From positions 51,338 through 115,337 of the forward strand of contig JBHGBF010000001.1 of NCBI GenBank assembly GCA_041946865.1: DNA of 64,000 bases, read 5' to 3'. Position numbers and translations under genes: made by a program. Below, one piece after another: positions 288-55,600 of the stretch (the stretch's first letter is position 1; each line of letters opens with the position of its first letter). The stretch is from Acidobacteriota bacterium. Its GTDB lineage: Bacteria; Acidobacteriota; UBA6911; RPQK01. The notes under the pieces are model-generated. The model saw nothing but the letters and a program-made list of their open reading frames with translations, had not been told where the DNA came from and did no database searches.

Positions 288-2369
288 ATGAGAAGCAGCG
301 CTACTGGACTGGCGATCAGTCAATTCGAGACACCGAAGCGGCTGGACCTTGCGGTAGGTCTGGCAGTCCTGACGATCATCGGGGTGATGTTGGTCCCTGT
401 CCCGCCCTTTGTGCTTGATTTTCTGATCGCCATTAATGTGACAGCCTCCGTCATACTTTTGCTGATTTCCCTGTACGTGACGGAGCCGATCGCTTTCTCG
501 GTGTTCCCCACCGTGCTTCTCCTGATGACCCTTTACAGGCTTTCGCTGAATGTGGCGAGCACTCGTCTGATTCTGCTCGAGGGGGGATCGGGGACGTCGG
601 CGGCAGGACGCGTTATTGAGTCATTCGGACAGTTCGTGGTGGGCGGGAACTACGTGGTCGGCGCCGTGGTTTTTTTGGTGCTGATCGCCATCCAGTACAT
701 CGTGGTGAATCACGGGGCGGTGAGGACATCGGAAGTGACGGCGCGATTCACCCTGGATGCGATGCCGGGCAAGCAGATGAGCATTGACGCCGACCTGAAC
801 GCCGGTCTGATCGATGAAGAGCAGGCCCGGGAGAGGCGGAAGCGAGTGAGCCAGGAGGCCGAGTTTTACGGATCCATGGACGGGGCTGTGAGGTTCACTC
901 AACGGGACGCCGTGGCCAGCATCATCATCGTCGCCATCAACATCATTGCCGGCTTCCTGATCGGAGTCGTCAGCCATGGAATGCCGTTGATGGAAGCGAT
1001 GAAGACCTACACGATCCTGACCATTGGAGATGGACTGGTCACAGCGATCCCCGCCCTGCTGGTTTCTGTCACCGCCGGTATCATGACGACGCGAGCGGCC
1101 TCCGAGTCGGATCTGGGCGAAGAAGTCTCGACACAGATGTTCTCTGACCCGAAACCGATGGCCATCGGCGCCGCTGTGCTGATGCTGATCGCGGTCATCC
1201 CAGGACTCCCCTTTCTATCCTTCTTCCTGCTGGGTGCCAGCACGGGTGCCGTGACCTGGTACATGAGCAGGCGCAGAAAGACCGCAGCCCAGATCGTGCG
1301 AAATGAGGCGATCGCGGAAACCAGGCCACCGGAAGAAAAGATGGAGACCCTGCTGCGAGTCGACCCGCTGGGGCTCGAGCTCGGCTATCAGCTCATTCAC
1401 CTGGTCGAGAACAAACCAGGCACCGACTTCCTGTCGCACATCAAATCGATCCGCCGCCAACTGGCTTCGGAGCTGGGCGTGATAGTTCCGCCCATTCACA
1501 TCACCGACAACCTGCAACTCAAGCCCAAGGAGTATCGGATCTTGCTCAAGGGGGTCGACCTGGTCCACGGGGAACTGAACCCGGGCTTTTTGATGGCGAT
1601 CGACCCGGGCCAGGTGACCAAGGCCGTGGAGGGCATTCCTGCGCGTGAGCCGGCTTTCCAGCTCGACGCGGTCTGGATCAGGCCGGAGGACCGAGAAAAA
1701 GCTCAGCTGGCCGGCTACACGGTGGTCGAAAACACCACCGTTCTGGCCACTCACCTCACGGAGACCATCAAGGGGGTCATGCATGAGCTGCTCAGCCGGC
1801 AAGAAGTGAAAGGCCTCATCGATGCCGTCAACGAGACGCACCCGAAGGTCGTAGAGGAACTGATCCCCTCGGTGATGCGCATCGGCGAAGTCCAAAAGGT
1901 GCTTCAGAACCTCCTGCGCGAACGAGTCTCGATTCGAGACATGGTGACGATCCTGGAAACCTTGGCCGACTTCGCACCACGCACCAAGAACACTGCCTTG
2001 TTGACGGAGTACACCCGCCAGGCCCTCGGCCGGTCGATCTGTCGCCCGTTTATCGATGAGGAAGGGACTCTTCGAGTCCTTACCCTCGCCCATGATCTCG
2101 AAAGGCTTTTCGCGGATTCAATCACCGTGACGGAAGCCGACAATTTTCTGACGCTGGCTCCAGCGCACGCCAAGAACTTCATCGTCAAGCTCCAGAAGGC
2201 CCTGTCAGAAAAGCCGTTTGACGGCTATCCGATTCTGCTCGTCACGAGCAACATCCGCCTCCACGTCAGGCGCTTGGTTGAAGACGTGATCAGCAATCTC
2301 GTTGTGCTCTCTCACAACGAGATTCCTCCACACGTGAAGCTGATCAGCCTGGGAGAAGTTTCCTTATGA
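288..2369 (+). CDS. flhA: Flagellar biosynthesis protein FlhA (type III export gate)
   Basis: 693 aa. N-terminal multi-TM region and the conserved FHIPEP motifs are present. C-terminal cytoplasmic domain is present. Position is flhB-flhA-flhF. Confidence 0.95.
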   Translation: MRSSATGLAISQFETPKRLDLAVGLAVLTIIGVMLVPVPPFVLDFLIAINVTASVILLLISLYVTEPIAFSVFPTVLLLMTLYRLSLNVASTRLILLEGGSGTSAAGRVIESFGQFVVGGNYVVGAVVFLVLIAIQYIVVNHGAVRTSEVTARFTLDAMPGKQMSIDADLNAGLIDEEQARERRKRVSQEAEFYGSMDGAVRFTQRDAVASIIIVAINIIAGFLIGVVSHGMPLMEAMKTYTILTIGDGLVTAIPALLVSVTAGIMTTRAASESDLGEEVSTQMFSDPKPMAIGAAVLMLIAVIPGLPFLSFFLLGASTGAVTWYMSRRRKTAAQIVRNEAIAETRPPEEKMETLLRVDPLGLELGYQLIHLVENKPGTDFLSHIKSIRRQLASELGVIVPPIHITDNLQLKPKEYRILLKGVDLVHGELNPGFLMAIDPGQVTKAVEGIPAREPAFQLDAVWIRPEDREKAQLAGYTVVENTTVLATHLTETIKGVMHELLSRQEVKGLIDAVNETHPKVVEELIPSVMRIGEVQKVLQNLLRERVSIRDMVTILETLADFAPRTKNTALLTEYTRQALGRSICRPFIDEEGTLRVLTLAHDLERLFADSITVTEADNFLTLAPAHAKNFIVKLQKALSEKPFDGYPILLVTSNIRLHVRRLVEDVISNLVVLSHNEIPPHVKLISLGEVSL

Positions 2370-47388: not shown

Positions 47389-48735
47389 ATGCCCGAGGTC
47401 GGGGAACAGGCTGTCATAAAGGCGCTCAACAACTCTGCGCTGCCGCTCAGGCACGGAGCTGAAGAGCATGACATCCTGATCGACCGGATGGCTGAAGCTT
47501 CCTTTGTTTTTATTGGGGAAGCCAGCCATGGGACGCACGAGTTCTACCAGCAGCGTGCGGAAATCACGAAGCGCTTGATCAAAGAAAAGGGCTTTCAGGG
47601 AGTTGCCATTGAGGCCGATTGGCCGGACGCGTATCGGGTCCATCGCTACGTCACGAACATGGATGCCATGCCAAGCACGACGGCCTCGCTCAGCCGTTTC
47701 AGACACTTCCCAACGTGGATGTGGCGTAACCGGGTCGTCGAGGCTTTTGTCGAGTGGCTTCGGGCACACAACAACTCGCTCCCGCCCGATCGGCCAAAAG
47801 TCGGGGTCTTCGGCCTGGACCTCTATGGTCTCTACGGGTCGATCAAAAGCGTCCTCGAGTACCTGCAGAAAGTCGATCCTAAGGCGGAGGCCAGGGCGCG
47901 CTTTCGATACTCCTGCTTCGACCATTTCGGCGAGAACACGGAAGCTTACGGTTACGCGGCCAGTTTTGACCTGGAGGAGTCCTGCGAGAAAGAAGTGATC
48001 AAGCAACTCGTCGATCTGCGCAAGAACGCTCTCGACTACCTGCGCCGTGACGGACAGGTTGCCGAAGAGGAGTATTTCCAGATCGTGCAAAACGCGCGCC
48101 TCGTGAAAAACGCCGAGAAATACTATCGGGAAATGTTCACAGGGAGGGTGTCGTCCTGGAACATACGCGATACGCACATGGCGGAGACCCTGGAAGAGCT
48201 GGAAGCACATCTCAGACAGCAGCGGGGCGCTCCGCCAAAACTGGTGATTTGGGCGCACAACTCTCACATCGGCGACGCCTCAGCGACCGAGCTCGGCCAG
48301 CAGGGGGAGATCAATGTCGGTCAGCTGATCCGGCAGAAGTACCCAAACGACTGCTTCCTCCTCGGTTTTACCACCTACGAGGGGGAGGTCACTGCTGCCT
48401 CTGACTGGGGAGGGCCGGCGGAGACCAAACGCGTCCGGCCAGCCCTGCGTGCAAGCTACGAAGAGCTGTTCCACCGAACCGGGATTCCCCGCTTCCTGAT
48501 AACCCTCTGGGATTACGAGGCGGCCACCGGCGAGCTGAAGCAGGCCCGTTTGGAGCGGGGGATCGGAGTCATCTACCGACCGGAGAGCGAGCGAATCAGC
48601 CACTACTTCTACGCGAGGCTCTCGGATCAGTTCGACGCCGTGATCCACCTCGACCGAACCACCGCCGTCCAGCCCCTCGACAAAACTGCTGACACGCTCG
48701 TAACAAGCGTGCAATTGATTGAAAATAAAGGATAG
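47389..48735 (+). CDS. Erythromycin esterase (Ere/ChaN-like) family protein
   Basis: 448 aa. VFIGEASHGTHEFYQQRAEITKRLIKEKGFQGVAIEADWPDA and WAHNSHIGD are characteristic of PF05139 erythromycin-esterase homologs. Confidence 0.75.
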   Translation: MPEVGEQAVIKALNNSALPLRHGAEEHDILIDRMAEASFVFIGEASHGTHEFYQQRAEITKRLIKEKGFQGVAIEADWPDAYRVHRYVTNMDAMPSTTASLSRFRHFPTWMWRNRVVEAFVEWLRAHNNSLPPDRPKVGVFGLDLYGLYGSIKSVLEYLQKVDPKAEARARFRYSCFDHFGENTEAYGYAASFDLEESCEKEVIKQLVDLRKNALDYLRRDGQVAEEEYFQIVQNARLVKNAEKYYREMFTGRVSSWNIRDTHMAETLEELEAHLRQQRGAPPKLVIWAHNSHIGDASATELGQQGEINVGQLIRQKYPNDCFLLGFTTYEGEVTAASDWGGPAETKRVRPALRASYEELFHRTGIPRFLITLWDYEAATGELKQARLERGIGVIYRPESERISHYFYARLSDQFDAVIHLDRTTAVQPLDKTADTLVTSVQLIENKG

Positions 48736-48918
48736 AAAAGCAGGTCTGAGCACCTTTTTAGTTTTGCCTGTTGCCTCGATCAACCTAACGCTCGGCAACG
48801 GGTGGAACGGCGCGCACCAACGGGGTGCGCCATGCGGAAGAATTTGTCCTTTTTTGATGCCCTTCCATCAAAGTCGGTCAGCTGCCGAAACATAGAGCCA
48901 AGCTGCGTAAATAATTAG

Positions 48919-49063
48919 CCATTTTGCGAACAATCGCGGGCCCGCGACCAGCGATCAGCCATTTCCGGGCACATTCGTCAGGATCATACAGAGAACACGG
49001 ATTCGCAAAATGGGTACTGCATTCCGCAAATTGGTGATACTCTGGCTCCAAAGCGGCTATAAT
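48919..49063 (+). promoter_or_regulatory. Promoter/operator upstream of the AraC-family regulator: inverted copy CCATTTTGCGAA (48919), direct repeats TTCGCAAAATGG (49002) and TCCGCAAATTGG (49023), -10 TATAAT (49058)
   Basis: The two direct half-sites start 21 nt apart. The downstream one abuts the -35 position of a TATAAT promoter. The same motif pair recurs at 52365-52427. Confidence 0.45.
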
Positions 49064-49142
49064 CAGGCTTCCGAGAGATGGAGGGCATGCACTACGACGC
49101 GCCGCATCCCGGCACGTCCTTGAGTTGCATCGAGGAGCTCCT

Positions 49143-50276
49143 ATGCGCATCCTGCTTCATATCGAATCCTCGCGTGCTTCGGGGCGGGACTTGCTGAAGG
49201 GAATTGCCGGTTACTCCAGGCTTCACGGCGATGTGACCTTCCATTGGGAACCGAGAGGGCTTCAGCCGACTCCGCTGCATCTCACGTCCTGGAAACCGGA
49301 CGGCATCATCACGCGCGATCCGGACATCGGCGAGATGATGGGTTATGGTGTTCCTCTCATAGTCGTTGGCCACAGGTACACCGCGATACCGGGCGTGGTA
49401 AATATCATCACCGACTCGGCGAGTATCGGCCGAATGGCGGCAGAGCACTTGCTTGCCTGCGGTTTGAAGCGCTTTGCGTTCTGTGGATTTCAGGACAAGC
49501 CGTGGTCGGGAGAACGGCTGGCCAGCTTTTCGGGCACGGTCGCCAAGGCCGGTTATGAGACCAGCTGCTACGAATCGCCGGAACCTACCGAGTCGGCTCT
49601 GCTCGAGACTGGTCTTACTGAACTGGCCCAGTGGCTGTTAACCCTTCCGAAGCCGGTCGGCGTTATGGCCTGTAATGATGACCGTGCGCAACAGGTGAGC
49701 GAGGCCTGCCAGATGGCCGGAATTCGGGTCCCCGAGCAGGTCGCACTCGTCGGGGCGGACAACGATGAATTGATTTGCGAGTTCTCTGCGCCTCCTATAT
49801 CCAGCGTTGCGATCAATTTCGAACGCGCCGGTTATGAGGCGGCCGAAGTGATGAGACAACTTGTGGCGGGCGAGAGAGCGGCGCGGGAAGTCATTTTCGT
49901 CCCCCCAACCCACCTTGTCACTCGGCAGTCGACGGATATCGTAGCGGTCGGCGATGAGGCCGTCGCCAAGGGTCTGCGGTTTATAAGAAGTCGTTACCGG
50001 GACGGTATCCGAGTCGAGGATGTCGCCCGCGCCGCCGGCGTATCCCGGCGGGTTCTCGAAAAGCGCTTTCAAAGCGTCCTGGGCCGCTCGGTCCTGAAGG
50101 AAATTCGCAGAGTACGGGTGGATCATATCAGCCGCCTCCTCGCGGAAAAGGAGATGTCGATCCTGCAGATTGCCCTTACGAGCGGGTTTGACGGTGTGGG
50201 CCATTTCGCGCGCTACTTCCGGGAAGAAAAAGGCATGAGCCCGCTGGCCTATCGCCGCCTCTACACGGCTCGGTGA
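49143..50276 (+). CDS. AraC/XylR-family transcriptional regulator (periplasmic-binding-protein-like sensor domain plus AraC HTH)
   Basis: Start MRILLHIESS after GAGGAG. The N-terminal ~270 aa resembles an LacI/PBP-type sugar-binding fold. C-terminal AraC HTH pair (VEDVARAAGVSRRVLEKRFQSVLG...ILQIALTSGFDGVGHFARYFREEKGMSPLAYRR). Confidence 0.8.
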   Translation: MRILLHIESSRASGRDLLKGIAGYSRLHGDVTFHWEPRGLQPTPLHLTSWKPDGIITRDPDIGEMMGYGVPLIVVGHRYTAIPGVVNIITDSASIGRMAAEHLLACGLKRFAFCGFQDKPWSGERLASFSGTVAKAGYETSCYESPEPTESALLETGLTELAQWLLTLPKPVGVMACNDDRAQQVSEACQMAGIRVPEQVALVGADNDELICEFSAPPISSVAINFERAGYEAAEVMRQLVAGERAAREVIFVPPTHLVTRQSTDIVAVGDEAVAKGLRFIRSRYRDGIRVEDVARAAGVSRRVLEKRFQSVLGRSVLKEIRRVRVDHISRLLAEKEMSILQIALTSGFDGVGHFARYFREEKGMSPLAYRRLYTAR

Positions 50277-50333
50277 TACCTCGGCGGGTTTGACGTGGCT
50301 CACAGACCTGCGAAACGTGCAGCGGAGGACTCC

Positions 50334-52337
50334 ATGAAACAAGCTGCTTTCTGTCTCCTCTTTTCCCTCTTCCTGACTTCGGCTTACGTGGCGGCTCAGG
50401 ATTACGATGTCGTTGTTTACGGAGCGACCGGCGGCGGGGTCGTGGCCTCCGTCGCCGCCGCCCGAGAGGGGAGCACTGTCCTGCTACTCGAGCCGGGCCG
50501 GCATGTGGGCGGGATGGTCACTGGCGGTTTGTCGCACACCGACTACGGAGACAGGACGGTGATCGGCGGACTGGCCATGGAGTTCTACAAGAAAGTCGCC
50601 GATCACTACAAGACACACGTGTTCTACTGGAGAGGACCAGAGCCGCACGTCGGGGAGAAGACCCTGAAGGACTGGCTTCAGGAGTCCAAGGTGGTAGTAC
50701 GGTTCGCAAGCCGCGTGGACCGCGTCGTCAAGCAAGAGCGGACGATCAGGAAAATCATTCTGGTAGATGGGACGGAGGTGTCAGGCAAGGTCTTTGTTGA
50801 CGCGGGATATGAGGGCGACCTGATGGCCCGAGCCGGGGTCAGCTACACCTGCGGTCGAGAAGGGAAAAAAGACTACAACGAGTCGTGGGCCGGGCGGCAA
50901 CCGATCATGCAGACGAGCCACCAGATTGATGCCAGGCTCAATCCCTTCACAAACGATAAAGAAAAAAAGCTGTTGCCGTTGATCAACCCCAGGCCCATGG
51001 TGGAGATCGGCGAAGGTGACAAGGGAATTCAGGCCTACTGCTTTCGGATGATCACCACCAATCGACCCGAAAATATGGTTCCCTGGCCGAAACCCGCTAA
51101 CTACGACCCCTCTGTTTTCGAGCTGGCGAGAAGATATTACCAGGCCCGCCCGGACGCCGGCCCGCTGATTCACTACTGGCCCACTCTTCCAAACGGGAAA
51201 TCGGACATCAATTCCTCAGCAGGCATCTCCACTAATCTCCTGGATGGCTCCAGTTGGGACTATCCGGAAGCGGACTACGCAGAGCGTGATCGAATCTGGC
51301 AGTGGCATAAGGACTACACCCTCGGCCTGGCCTGGTTCCTGGCCCACGACCCGGCGGTTCCTCAGAAGGTCAGGGAGGAAATGAAGACCTTCGGGCTCTG
51401 CAAGGACGAGTATGTAGACAACGATCATTTTCCACATCAACTCTACGTCCGAGTGGCGAGAAGGATGAAAGGCGAGTACTTTCTGACCCAGCATGACCTC
51501 ATCGAACAAACGGAAAAATACGATTCTATCGGCATGGGCTCCTACAACATCGACGTGCGTGAGATGCAGCGTGTCCACATTCCGATCAGCAGATTTCCCG
51601 ACTTGAAGTATGAGGTGTACAACGAAGGGTATCTGTCGATACCGGTCGAACTGTACCAGATACCCTATCGCTCGCTTGTACCGAGGTATTCAGAATGCCA
51701 GAACCTGCTGGTTCCAGTCTGCGTTTCGGGGACACACCTCGCTGTCGCATCCATCCGAATGGAACCGCAGTACATGATCATGGGCCACTCGGCCGGGGTC
51801 GCCGCCGCCGTGGCCGCGAAGACCGGGAGGCCGGTCCAGAAGATCGACACCTATGAGCTCCAGGAGAAGCTGAAAGGCCAGCGGCAGATTCTGTCACTTA
51901 GAGAAAACCCTTACGGGCTGTGGAGCAACGAAAAGGAAATCGTCATCGACAATAACATGAAGGGATTTGTGTCCTTTACCGGCGACTGGTTGGAAGAGGA
52001 GACGGTTCACGCCGGGCGTTACGAGATGAATTTTCGAGTGAAGCGGCCAGGCAGGAGCGGGACCTTCGAATACACTCCCTACTTTTTCAAGTCGGGTAAT
52101 TACAAGGTCTACTCCTGGCATCCCGCTTCAAAAGAGTACGCCGCAGATGTAAGCGTGCAGATCCATCACGCCGGAGGCACGCAAAAGATCAAGCTGAACC
52201 AGCAACAAGGCGGCGGGCGATGGCAGGAAGTGGGCGTATTCAGGTTTGAGCAGGGGCGACGTCTGGCGGTCGAGATCGAGGCGGGAGAGGACCAGCAAGT
52301 CGTCGCCGACGCCTTCAAGTTCCAATTGCTCCAGTAA
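50334..52337 (+). CDS. Secreted FAD-dependent oxidoreductase family protein (FAD_oxidored/PF12831-like)
   Basis: Signal peptide MKQAAFCLLFSLFLTSAYVAAQ. Dinucleotide-binding motif DVVVYGATGGGVVASVAAAREG and GGMVTGGL. 668 aa. Confidence 0.65.
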   Translation: MKQAAFCLLFSLFLTSAYVAAQDYDVVVYGATGGGVVASVAAAREGSTVLLLEPGRHVGGMVTGGLSHTDYGDRTVIGGLAMEFYKKVADHYKTHVFYWRGPEPHVGEKTLKDWLQESKVVVRFASRVDRVVKQERTIRKIILVDGTEVSGKVFVDAGYEGDLMARAGVSYTCGREGKKDYNESWAGRQPIMQTSHQIDARLNPFTNDKEKKLLPLINPRPMVEIGEGDKGIQAYCFRMITTNRPENMVPWPKPANYDPSVFELARRYYQARPDAGPLIHYWPTLPNGKSDINSSAGISTNLLDGSSWDYPEADYAERDRIWQWHKDYTLGLAWFLAHDPAVPQKVREEMKTFGLCKDEYVDNDHFPHQLYVRVARRMKGEYFLTQHDLIEQTEKYDSIGMGSYNIDVREMQRVHIPISRFPDLKYEVYNEGYLSIPVELYQIPYRSLVPRYSECQNLLVPVCVSGTHLAVASIRMEPQYMIMGHSAGVAAAVAAKTGRPVQKIDTYELQEKLKGQRQILSLRENPYGLWSNEKEIVIDNNMKGFVSFTGDWLEEETVHAGRYEMNFRVKRPGRSGTFEYTPYFFKSGNYKVYSWHPASKEYAADVSVQIHHAGGTQKIKLNQQQGGGRWQEVGVFRFEQGRRLAVEIEAGEDQQVVADAFKFQLLQ

Positions 52338-52364
52338 GAAATCGCCCTTCGGCGAAAGAGCGTG

Positions 52365-52427
52365 TTCGCAAAATGGTTACAAATTTACGCAAAATGGTGC
52401 TCTTTTTTCAAGCCTGCCGCCTATAAT
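52365..52427 (+). promoter_or_regulatory. Second copy of the AraC-type operator/promoter: TTCGCAAAATGG (52365), TACGCAAAATGG (52386), TATAAT (52422), upstream of the TonB-dependent receptor gene
   Basis: Same 21-nt-spaced direct repeats and same distance to a TATAAT -10 as at 49002-49063. Confidence 0.45.
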
Positions 52428-52664
52428 CAGCTTATCCAAGCTCTCGACAGGTATGTTGCCTCTAGGCCGAAGCGCAATAGCCGGGACCACTGTCCAAATT
52501 CAAATCGGCGAGGGAGAACCTGTCTCTATGGCGCACTTTCATTCCGCCTTCGGGACGACTGGGAGTCTTGTTCGATGGGGCGATTTTCGCGGTGCAGCCC
52601 GCTTCAGGTTGTCAACGGCCTCCTGGTCTGCCCCATGGTGCACTTACCGCGGAGGAGGATACGT

Positions 52665-55600
52665 ATGAAAAGTCCGTCTTTGAGTCTACTGCTCCTATGC
52701 CTGCTGGGAGCTGGAACTCTTCTTTGCCCGTTACCCCTGCATGCGCAGGGAGTGTTCGGGACGATCAGCGGCACCATTCAAGACTCCAAAGGAGCGGCAA
52801 TTCCGGGTGCAGGCGTGACCGTCACGAACGTGAACACTGGCGTAGTGCGCCAGGTGACGACCAATGAAGTAGGGATCTACACCGCAACCAGTTTGATTCC
52901 CGGCGTGTACAGGGTGGAGGCAGAAATGCCCGGCTTCAAGAAGGCGGTTGTCTCCGATGTCACGCTCGAAGTGAACGCCAACCTGAAGATCAACCTGGTC
53001 ATGGAGTTGGGTGAAGTGACGGAGGTCGTCAACGTCACGTCGGAGGCGCCTCTTCTGACCACCCAGCAATCCAATCTTGGTCAGACCGTGACGCAACGGC
53101 AGATCGAGCAGTTGCCCACGGGACGCGACCTGTTCAACCTGCTTCCGCTCTCAGCAGGGGTATCTCAGCAAGCCGGTTGTGACGGGTGTGGGAACAACGG
53201 CAACATGCGCATCAACGGCGACCGGCCACGTACCCAGGATTACATCCTGGATGGCACCACGATCAACGCGCCGGTGTTCGGGGGCCAGGCGCTCAATCCG
53301 GCGATCGATTCCGTTGCCGAATTCAGAGTCGAGACGAACAGCATGTCCGCCGAATACGGCAAAGCCGGCGGCGGTATCATTATCGCCGTGACTAGGTCGG
53401 GCACGAACGAGTTCCACGGGTCCGGCTACTGGTACCATCGCAACGAAAGCCTCAACGCCCGCAACTTCTTCGAAGATCCGACACAACCCAAGAACCCTTT
53501 TAGCCAGCACGAATTCGGTGGAACAATAGGCGGGCCAATCCTGAGGGACAAGCTGTTCTTCTTTACCGACCTCCAGGTATTACGCCTTGACGGGAGCAGC
53601 CCCAGCGTTGATCACGTCGTGCCGAATTCGGCCTTCCGCAGCGGCGACCTTTCCGCTTTGTGTACGGCCGGTTTCGATGCCGCGGGGATTTGTGCGGACC
53701 CCAGCCAGCAGTTCCGGTTCCCGGGGACGGACCAGTTCGTTCCTTTCAATCGAATCCCCGCCTCGCAGATTAACCCCATTTCGCAGCGGGTCATCGACGT
53801 GTGGCCGTCGTCTACGGTCGCTGGGACTGTGCCCGGAACCAATTTGTTCAGCTTCACGAGGGATAACGATAACAGGACGACCCGGTTTAATCCCCGGGTA
53901 GACTACCACCTGTCGGCGTCGGATCTTTTCTTTGGCGTCTTTCACCGGCAAACCGGCCGCCAGACCTCGCATCCGGGCATTATTCCCGGGCCTGCAGGCG
54001 AACAGATCCACCGGCAGAACGACTATGCACTCACGACGGGGTGGACTCACAGCTTCAGCTCAGTATCCCTGAACGATTTTCGGTTTGGGTATATGCACCG
54101 AATCGGTGACCGCAGCAACCACGGCCAGGGTTCCACTTCGCCGTCGGACTTCGGGCTGCAGGGAATCCCGGATTGTCTGTCCACTATTCCCAACACGGAG
54201 AGTGGCAAGAAGTGCGGCACACCCTCGATCAGCGTTGTCGGATTTCAAGGGCTTGGCGGTGCAGGACTTCTCTATGAGCCGGCAGATACGCTCCAGATCA
54301 ACGACACTTTTTCCCGGCTCTTCGGCCGGCACAACCTGAAGATCGGCGGTGAAGCCCGCCGCTATTCCATCGACAACTACCAGCCGGATGCCGTCGCCAG
54401 CTTCAATTTCACCGGCTCACAAACCGACAATGCCTTTGCCGATTTCCTGTTCGGAACCATTCACAGCGGCTCGGCCGGGCTGCAAAACGCCATGCTTTCG
54501 ACACGGGCCTGGAGTTACTCGCTGTTCATTCAGGATGACTTCAAGCTGACTCCAAGACTAACGCTCAACCTGGGACTGCGGTACCAGTATGATCAGTCGT
54601 TCAGTGAAGTGAACGATGGGCTTGCCTTCTTTAATCCGTTCACGGCGGAGTGGGAACAGTTTGGAGTGAACGCCCCGGACACTCCGTTTGATCCGTCACG
54701 GAAAATGTTCGGGCCGCGTCTCGGGTTTGCGTGGAGTCCGATCAGCGATTTCGTCGTCCGCGCCGGTTACGGCATCACGTATCCGGGTGTGGTCGGTCAC
54801 GGCCGCGGAGGGGACGGCGAGCCCAGTCCCAACCTGAAGGCCACCACGCAGTTTCCGAGGGGAACAAACTGGTCCAGTCTGCCCCCGATCACCAACCCGG
54901 ATCCGTCCGCCATCAGGGCGCCCATAGCCGTGGGAAGCAACGTTTCGTTTTCCGCCTGGGCGCCACGCAAGCAAACGCCGACGTATATCCAGAGCTGGAA
55001 TCTGACGGTCGAGAAGCAACTTACAGGCAGCACCCTGGGGCAGCTGGCGTATGTCGGCACCCGCGGCACGCACTTGCCCATCAATTACGCGTACAACATC
55101 TGCCAGCAGACACGGGAAAGCACGGCGCAATTCGGCTATGACGCTACCACCAGCCCGTTTTGTCCGCTGGCCGCCGAAAAGGTGCTGGCGGCAGGCGGCT
55201 CGCTTTATGATCTGATAGTCACTCCAGGCTATTGGGGCCTCTCCAACTCGATTTATCACGCCATGCAGGCGAAGGTCGAGCGTCGCTTCTCGAGGGGCTT
55301 CTCGCTGCTGGGGACCTTCACCTGGAGCAAGCTGATCGACGATTCGTCCTCGGACTGGGGCGGATTCTGGTCTCTTGACACCCTCGGACAGGACTTCTAC
55401 AACCGGAGGGGGGACCGCTCGGTAAGCGCCGGCGACATTCCGGCTCGCCTCTCGGTGGCCTCCATTGTGGAACTCCCGTTCGGCCCCGGAAAAAAGTGGC
55501 TGAACAAGGGGATTGTTGCTCAGGCACTCGGGGGTTGGCATGTGAGCGCAATCTATTCGCTCAGCAGCGGCACTCCCTTTGGAATCCTGGACAACTGTTA

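Follow-up and report, generated by a model that had tools for sequence, protein, structure and literature searches.

AraC binds direct half-sites spaced 21 bp apart, the proximal of which overlaps the −35 element. An arrangement of this kind occurs in a 64,000-nucleotide stretch of an Acidobacteriota genome (contig JBHGBF010000001.1, forward strand, positions 51,338 to 115,337; the whole of this 64-kb stretch is called the window below), where three 33-bp elements, each built from a pair of direct repeats, lie beside the genes for a XylR-type regulator, a secreted flavin adenine dinucleotide (FAD) oxidoreductase, and a TonB-dependent receptor. We consider it probable (about 0.78) that these elements are operators of the adjacent regulator, which would act through them to activate both the unit formed by its own gene and the FAD gene and the receptor gene. 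The architecture and logic of the system are of the known XylR/AraC kind. In the literature outside subscription-only papers we found no description of the motif sequence, its conservation across phyla, or its set of targets, and searches on XylR in these phyla and on the flavoenzyme family PF12831 returned nothing relevant.

Like araI1-I2 of AraC (with O2), the elements combine a 21-bp direct-repeat periodicity, a proximal half-site next to the −35 position, and an extra upstream site. The proteins differ in their sensing domains, which is cupin-type and arabinose-binding in AraC and LacI-type here, and a looping role for the extra site, operator C, lacks the support of a conserved spacing.

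The nearest relative in protein architecture is XylR of Escherichia coli, which binds sites of ~37 bp, made of two direct repeats beside poor −35 boxes, and activates transcription with bound xylose (PMC3561964). The two regulators have the same domain organization and are homologous over their full length; their operators (IA and IF, serving xylAB and xylFGH, in E. coli) are ~33-37 bp long, contain two direct repeats, and stand next to a weak −35; and in both cases two inverted operators occupy one intergenic region, as operators C and A do here (PMC3561964). The half-sites, however, are unrelated (CGCAAAWTGG here versus the printed consensus gaAa-a-a-AAT), and the second recognition helix, HxaRyF here, is different. 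The regulator gene here itself lies behind an operator, and its putative targets comprise a TonB receptor and a secreted flavoenzyme rather than xylose catabolism and ABC transport. XylR in the strict sense is known by D-xylose as its ligand and by its xylose catabolic or transport targets; no xyl genes adjoin the regulator, and its relatives go with arabinose-type and many other sugar genes. None of the three proteins (regulator, FAD enzyme, receptor) has an equivalog in NCBIfam.

A third comparison is with the polysaccharide utilization loci of Bacteroidota, which are built on SusC/SusD and governed by hybrid two-component or extracytoplasmic function (ECF) sigma systems. Those loci likewise place a TonB receptor and a glycan-active enzyme under the local control of a sugar-responsive regulator whose output is an AraC-type helix-turn-helix (HTH). 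Here, in contrast, the unit has no SusD partner (no SusD domain was found among the window genes scanned) and no glycoside hydrolase (GH), the regulator is a cytoplasmic one-component protein of the XylR type, and the receptor is of the Acidobacteria-style OMP_b-brl_4 form.

Paired repeats at the regulator, FAD enzyme, and receptor genes

The three elements are as follows.

49002 to 49034, plus strand: operator A, consisting of TTCGCAAAATGG (49002-49013), 9 nt, and TCCGCAAATTGG (49023-49034)
52365 to 52397, plus strand: operator B, consisting of TTCGCAAAATGG (52365-52376), 9 nt, and TACGCAAAATGG (52386-52397)
48898 to 48930, minus strand: operator C, consisting of the distal repeat TTCGCAAAATGG (48930-48919), the 9-nt spacer CTAATTATT, and the proximal repeat TACGCAGCTTGG (48909-48898)

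Each is a pair of T(T/A/C)CGCAAAWTGG direct repeats, every repeat being extended by ~5 weaker bases, and the spacing is exactly 21 bp in all three pairs. An earlier note on this DNA had placed repeats at 49002/49023 and 52365/52386 and a TATAAT box downstream of each pair; all of those sequences are present at those coordinates, and the TATAAT boxes at 49058-49063 and 52422-52427 lie 23 and 24 nt past the second repeat. The same note had reported an inverted copy, CCATTTTGCGAA (48919-48930). The copy exists, but it does not stand alone: it forms the distal half of operator C, which a repeat finder independently flags as repeating pairs A and B in inverted orientation over 33-45 nt.

The repeats are far in excess of expectation. 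With one mismatch or fewer, the single motif TWCGCAAAWTGG has five matches in 64 kb against 0.76 expected, a number reached by none of 100 shuffles, and the paired form CGCAAAWTGG-N11-CGCAAAWTGG, with up to three mismatches, has three matches against 0.01 expected, which speaks against a chance origin for the pairs. A weight matrix derived solely from sites of other genomes scores pair B at 48.4 bits, pair C at 35.1, and pair A at 31.7, where the shuffle maximum is 9.7; apart from these pairs no match in the window exceeds 8 bits, so that the matrix yields no further candidate members of the regulon there. Promoters A and B have in common only the repeats and CGSCTATAATCAG. Because their 9-nt spacers and the 23-24 nt preceding the −10 differ, the likeness between them is motif-specific and does not reflect a recent duplication; chance and a larger duplicated or mobile element were both rejected on the same grounds, and because the orthologs diverge elsewhere. 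In all likelihood the adjoining XylR-type sugar-sensing regulator does bind at the repeated TTCGCAAAATGG motifs.

Orthologous contigs preserve the pairs. The regulator encoded in L120/L121 is 91% identical to that of the window and is followed after 13 nt by the FAD gene; pair A is retained there as TTCTCAAAATGG-9-TTCGCCAAATGG, with a TATACT −10 24 nt later, in intergenic DNA that otherwise aligns poorly. Pair C is retained in the same contigs as TTCGCAAAACGG-9-TACGCAACTTGG, followed by TATGAT at +25 and a divergent gene for a Fucose_iso_C-type isomerase. L201/L202, whose FAD enzyme and receptor are 89% and 87% identical to those of the window, keep pair B (TTCGCAAAATGG-CGATAACTT-TCCGTAAAATGG) between the two genes, with TATAAT 24 nt on and a different spacer. 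In a more distant Acidobacteriota contig (L087/L103; regulator 57% and FAD enzyme 81% identical) the gene trio is reordered, and the pair sits between the regulator and a divergent receptor gene, directed at the latter. The adjacency of regulator and FAD genes is kept in L120 and in L087, and in L206 a pair lies past the FAD gene, ahead of an unannotated gene. By this comparison pairs A, B, and C are phylogenetic footprints, kept while the DNA around them diverged. As a separate matter, the ~390-nt regulator-FAD gap of L087 contains a long inverted repeat (640-1000, minus strand) resembling repetitive extragenic palindromic (REP) or miniature inverted-repeat transposable elements.

The promoters and genes to which the operators belong are the following; domain assignments are from Pfam.

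49034 to 49063, plus strand: promoter of the regulator-FAD unit, with a −35-like GTGATA (49034-49039), an 18-nt spacer, and TATAAT (49058-49063)
52422 to 52427, plus strand: TATAAT, −10 of the receptor promoter, 24 nt past operator B
48867 to 48872, minus strand: weak −10-like TTTGAT, 25 nt past operator C, where L120 has TATGAT at the same offset
49143 to 50276, plus strand: gene for the XylR-type regulator, 377 aa, with a Peripla_BP_3 sugar-binding domain and an AraC-type HTH_18 domain
50334 to 52337, plus strand: gene for a protein with a signal peptide, FAD_oxidored (PF12831), and Golvesin_C
52428 to 52664, plus strand: receptor leader of ~235 nt, its first ~115 nt (52428-52545) kept in L201
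52665 to 56039, plus strand: gene for the TonB-dependent receptor, with CarboxypepD_reg and OMP_b-brl_4
47389 to 48735, plus strand: erythromycin-esterase family gene, upstream of operator C

The regulator matches its family in both halves (Peripla_BP_3, E = 6.4e-39; HTH_18, E = 6.5e-22), and its alignment with E. coli XylR (4FE4/4FE7) extends over query residues 2-372 with E = 5.7e-47; no second paralog was found in the 64-kb window. At operator A the promoter scan calls GTGATA-18-TATAAT (10/12 matches), the GTGATA box beginning on the final base of the proximal repeat. The same scan makes no plus-strand call at pair B, where there is no recognizable −35, and for this reason the receptor promoter looks activator-dependent. 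The receptor gene appears to be monocistronic, since the next gene (OmpR/PD40) is convergent. The weight matrix finds no operator directly upstream of the FAD gene; the gap between it and the regulator gene is 57 nt, no plus-strand terminator is called between them, and the FAD gene is presumed to be co-transcribed with the regulator.

Operator C faces no gene in the window, the esterase gene at 47389-48735 being on the plus strand, and the window contains no gene for a Fucose_iso_C-type isomerase. The TTTGAT at 48867-48872 is probably a decayed promoter. Given that L120 has both a TATGAT and an isomerase gene in the corresponding place and the window only TTTGAT and no gene, operator C most likely remains from a divergent promoter that once served an isomerase gene since lost from this genome; it may still serve as an auxiliary site.

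The motif and its regulator family

The link between the motif and regulators of this type was examined in metagenome loci picked only by regulator homology (40-56% identity, ~583 kb). Two scans were made, one of 80 loci including L121, a contig copy of the 91% ortholog, and one of the 79 loci without it. A pair with three mismatches or fewer is present in 52 of the 80 loci (51 of 79 without L121). The spacing is exactly 21 in 62 of the 63 matches in the larger set even though 20-22 was permitted, and a reversed-sequence control gave one match. In the set of 79, the regulator gene is no more than 200 bp away from 49 of the 60 pairs, the zone so defined making up 5.2% of the DNA. All 49 are directed away from the regulator: 42 lie just past its stop codon facing downstream, and seven lie upstream.

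The consensus of the family sites is ttCGCAAAATGGCGAtT.tTTT.CGCAAAgTGGCGTTGt, which may also be written ttCGCAAAATGGCGAtT-N4-T-CGCAAAgTGGCGTTG. Counted from the end of the pair, 35 of 52 sites have a TTG at +2, and 38 of 52 have TAnnnT at +24 to +26, with a mode of +25; in other words, a canonical −35/17/−10 promoter directly follows the family sites and overlaps the proximal half-site. The presumed recognition helices of the regulators, SRRxLExrF and HxaRyFr, are near-invariant in the family, which fits a conserved DNA core. Behind the pairs stand carbohydrate genes: those for TonB receptors, GH3, GH31, GH42, and GH127 enzymes, alpha-L-fucosidase, and arabinofuranosidase, as well as for L-arabinose isomerase (araA), FGGY kinase, and zinc-binding dehydrogenase; others encode LamG, PATR, PEP-CTERM, and pseudopilin-like proteins. 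One locus, L165 (Ga0114922_10000470), carries four operators of a single subtype, GTCGCAAAATGA-N9-TCCGCAAAATGG (at 209, 3661, 6897, and 8197), inside 15 kb around one regulator gene, an instance of one regulator with several adjoining transcription units.

A scan of one genome per species for CGCAAAWTGG-N11-CGCAAAWTGG returned at least 119 loci, where ~4 matches would be expected in ~1.2e12 positions by our own estimate, which assumes uniform base composition. The matches listed come mostly from Planctomycetota, Verrucomicrobiota, Acidobacteriota, and Ignavibacteria, and at 32 among the 119 listed the 8-kb locus also holds a gene for a XylR-type homolog. Some 27 of those listed were set aside as unrelated, being Betaproteobacteria coding sequence or tandem arrays. 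The former is a CGCAAAATGGTGCAGCCRTARCGCAAATTGG... stretch with the 31-nt pattern, located inside long open frames of Neisseriales and Burkholderiales (L003, L008, L013, L023, L048, L074, L075, L078, L081, L089, L091, L094, L097, and L117), and appears to be conserved coding sequence unrelated to the operator. The latter are tandem arrays of 21-nt units with CCGCAAAATGG-like cores, in at least four copies and with the periodicity of the operator; they occur in L052 (~180-300; Verrucomicrobiaceae JABTUN010000003.1) and also in L086, L096, L050, and L073. Either they are operators with multiple sites or the repeats have nothing to do with the operator.

Proposed activation, specificity, and rival readings

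We propose that the regulator, with its LacI-like sugar-binding domain and AraC-type double HTH, would bind as a dimer, placing one DNA-binding domain on each repeat, the 21-bp spacing corresponding to two helical turns. At operators A and B the proximal repeat abuts or overlaps the −35 position, 23-24 bp upstream of TATAAT, and with a −35 that is poor or absent the ligand-bound regulator would recruit RNA polymerase. Such activation would be class-II-like, as at AraC I1-I2 and at IA and IF of E. coli XylR. Operator A extends from about −68 to −36 if transcription starts ~7 nt past the −10, and because this position equals that of the XylR and AraC sites, we infer dimer binding and ligand-dependent recruitment of the polymerase. 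Operator A would then drive the regulator-FAD unit, a case of positive autoregulation, and operator B the TonB-dependent receptor gene, the two together specifying a small glycan uptake-plus-processing module induced by a sugar. What the analysis shows is the sequences themselves, their excess over chance, their conservation, their tie to these regulator genes across the family, and the promoter geometry; from these we infer binding by this particular regulator, activation rather than repression, co-transcription of the FAD gene, and a sugar as ligand.

Much of this had been anticipated. A class-II activator position was claimed from the −10 distances, and the geometry agrees with it: the repeats, the TTG at +2, and the −10 at about +25 seen family-wide match those of E. 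coli XylR and AraC. The prediction of autoregulation holds in so far as operator A points into the regulator gene; it does not generalize, for an operator so directed is found only in the window and its 91% ortholog and at none of the 79 other loci. We therefore regard the predicted positive autoregulation as a clade-specific rearrangement in which the usual target promoter now drives the regulator and the FAD gene. The FAD enzyme had been counted as a regulon member; its gene lacks a dedicated operator, however, and is connected to the regulon solely by its presumed co-transcription with the regulator. As for the idea of one regulon, the comparative data do link the three genes, but a core common to the whole family and its paralogs cannot define a single regulon.

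Several observations weigh against the mechanism proposed. The −10 elements of the window lie 23-24 nt past the repeat, whereas the family mode is 25, and the TTG conserved at +2 in the family is absent from both window promoters. No pair is present in 22 of the 65 homolog loci with adequate flanks, from which it follows that the motif is subfamily-wide and not universal. The short gap and the want of a called plus-strand terminator are all that ties the FAD gene to the regulon, and in other genomes there are FAD orthologs that neither the regulator nor the operator accompanies. Finally, in three genomes distinct paralogs, 46-60% identical, each adjoin a pair with the exact 10-nt core; since the core is not regulator-specific, another paralog encoded elsewhere in the genome could bind the window sites.

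This last point underlies the most serious alternative, that the sites are real XylR-family operators read by several paralogs, or mainly by one encoded elsewhere, and thus form a shared glycan-utilization box. Besides the recurrence of the identical core next to different paralogs of one genome, the occurrence of the core ahead of very different sugar genes in at least four phyla and the near-invariance of the DNA-contact motifs of the binding domain speak for it. The pairs, however, nearly always lie less than 200 bp from a regulator gene, which implies local pairing; flanking and spacer bases, which vary from one ortholog group to another, could confer specificity; three related contigs have the regulator, FAD enzyme, receptor, and operator together; and there is only one regulator paralog within 64 kb. 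We judge this alternative unlikely, if a genuine contender, and assign the sites to the adjacent regulator on the strength of adjacency and conserved co-occurrence. It is a good deal less probable that the regulator is mainly a repressor, or acts through a DNA loop bridging operators C and A, either when no ligand is bound, like O2-I1 of AraC, or for activation, as proposed for IA-IF of E. coli XylR. Upstream of the regulator gene there are indeed two inverted full operators with 71 bp between them, and the XylR dimer has been seen looping between IA and IF in E. coli (PMC3561964). Yet the gap between C and A is not conserved, for it measures 71 nt in the window but 100 nt in L120, which changes the helical phase, so that looping between them is possible but unsupported; operator C of L120 has its own −10 and divergent gene, operator B has no partner, and the family pairs lie upstream of the −35 without overlapping the −10 or the start site.

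We give very little credence to the view that the motif is no transcription-factor site at all, whether a chance repeat, a mobile or REP-like element, or a promoter element that RNA polymerase or an alternative sigma factor recognizes. The same 31-nt pattern does turn up in unrelated contexts, namely the Betaproteobacteria coding sequence and the 21-nt tandem arrays already described. Against this stand the expectation of 0.01 pairs in the window, the restriction of conservation among copies and orthologs to the repeats and the −10, with divergent spacers and flanks, the strict 21-bp spacing, and the tie between pairs and XylR-type genes in both position and orientation. Moreover, a canonical TTG-17-TAnnnT promoter follows the pair, which makes the pair additional to sigma-70-type elements. 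Activation by the adjacent regulator through operators A and B continues to account best, in our opinion, for what is seen in the window.

Most of the variation from one ortholog group to another affects the two bases that precede CGC, positions 6 and 9, and the bases that follow TGG. An arabinose-type group has the operator TGCGCAAAATGG-CTAATAATT-TACGCATTGTGG, which precedes araA or a Fucose_iso_C-type isomerase gene, an FGGY kinase gene, a class II aldolase-family gene, and an aldose epimerase gene, and sometimes a GH43 gene is present in these operons. Operator C resembles the arabinose-type operators in its spacer and its degenerate proximal half. Within such operons, the Fucose_iso_C-type isomerase of L170 (2113-7244) holds the place that canonical AraA has in L176 (8361-14390), which suggests a non-orthologous isomerase replacement.

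We speculate, with more doubt than conviction, that CGCAAAWTGG-N11-CGCAAAWTGG could be a pan-phylum glycan-utilization box, with many paralogous XylR-type sensors per genome reading the same core in Acidobacteriota, Planctomycetota, Verrucomicrobiota, Ignavibacteria, and others. Were this so, promoters might integrate several sugar signals through cross-activation and mixed dimers, or specificity might come instead from flanking and spacer bases together with strict proximity in cis; the logic in either case would be unlike that of the hybrid two-component and ECF systems of Bacteroidota loci. A practical consequence of a core common to paralogs and phyla is that a genome-wide motif search would return the targets of all paralogs.

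Module function and the receptor leader

The nature of the substrate is suggested by neighborhood. The FAD enzyme is without a characterized relative, and a comparison with PDB sequences gave no informative solved relative for its catalytic domain; only the C-terminal domain of the enzyme matches, to the C-terminus of a Paenibacillus xanthan lyase. Orthologs of the FAD enzyme that are 66-69% identical are encoded inside SusC/SusD glycan-utilization loci of Bacteroidota, one of which contains a GH2 gene, three GH29 fucosidase genes, and a hybrid two-component regulator, and a second GH27/36, GH42, and GH141-like genes. These surroundings support a role for the FAD enzyme on a complex glycan that contains fucose, galactose, or arabinose. 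That the ligand of the regulator might be a pentose or a deoxy-hexose is a weak guess, prompted by the association with an isomerase gene in L120.

Gene regulation in Acidobacteriota and in the Planctomycetota-Verrucomicrobiota group is almost uncharted, even though these bacteria are major degraders of glycans in soil and water. An operator consensus with a fixed promoter geometry gives a means of finding promoters and regulons that respond to sugars directly in metagenomes, is a pointer to inducible promoter parts for bacteria that are hard to engineer, and allows the PF12831/Golvesin_C flavoenzyme to be placed in a glycan pathway. Within the window it would define a compact receptor-plus-flavoenzyme module with predicted positive autoregulation.

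The leader between the receptor promoter and the receptor gene shows a feature of its own. A 46-codon upstream open reading frame (52529-52669), overlapping the receptor start by ATGA, was considered and rejected; it is reduced to 4 codons in L201, and because it is not conserved there it is probably non-coding. A search of Rfam over 48700-52700 gave one sub-threshold chance match only, and none for the leader. The first ~115 nt (3186-3300 in L201) are far better conserved than the remaining spacer, and for this segment RNAalifold predicts a closing stem, GACAGGT/ACCTGTC, with a few compensatory changes in inner stems, a prediction made from two sequences. The leader may be a cis-regulatory RNA or hold a second protein site. 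That of the window carries ~110 nt more than the leader of L201.

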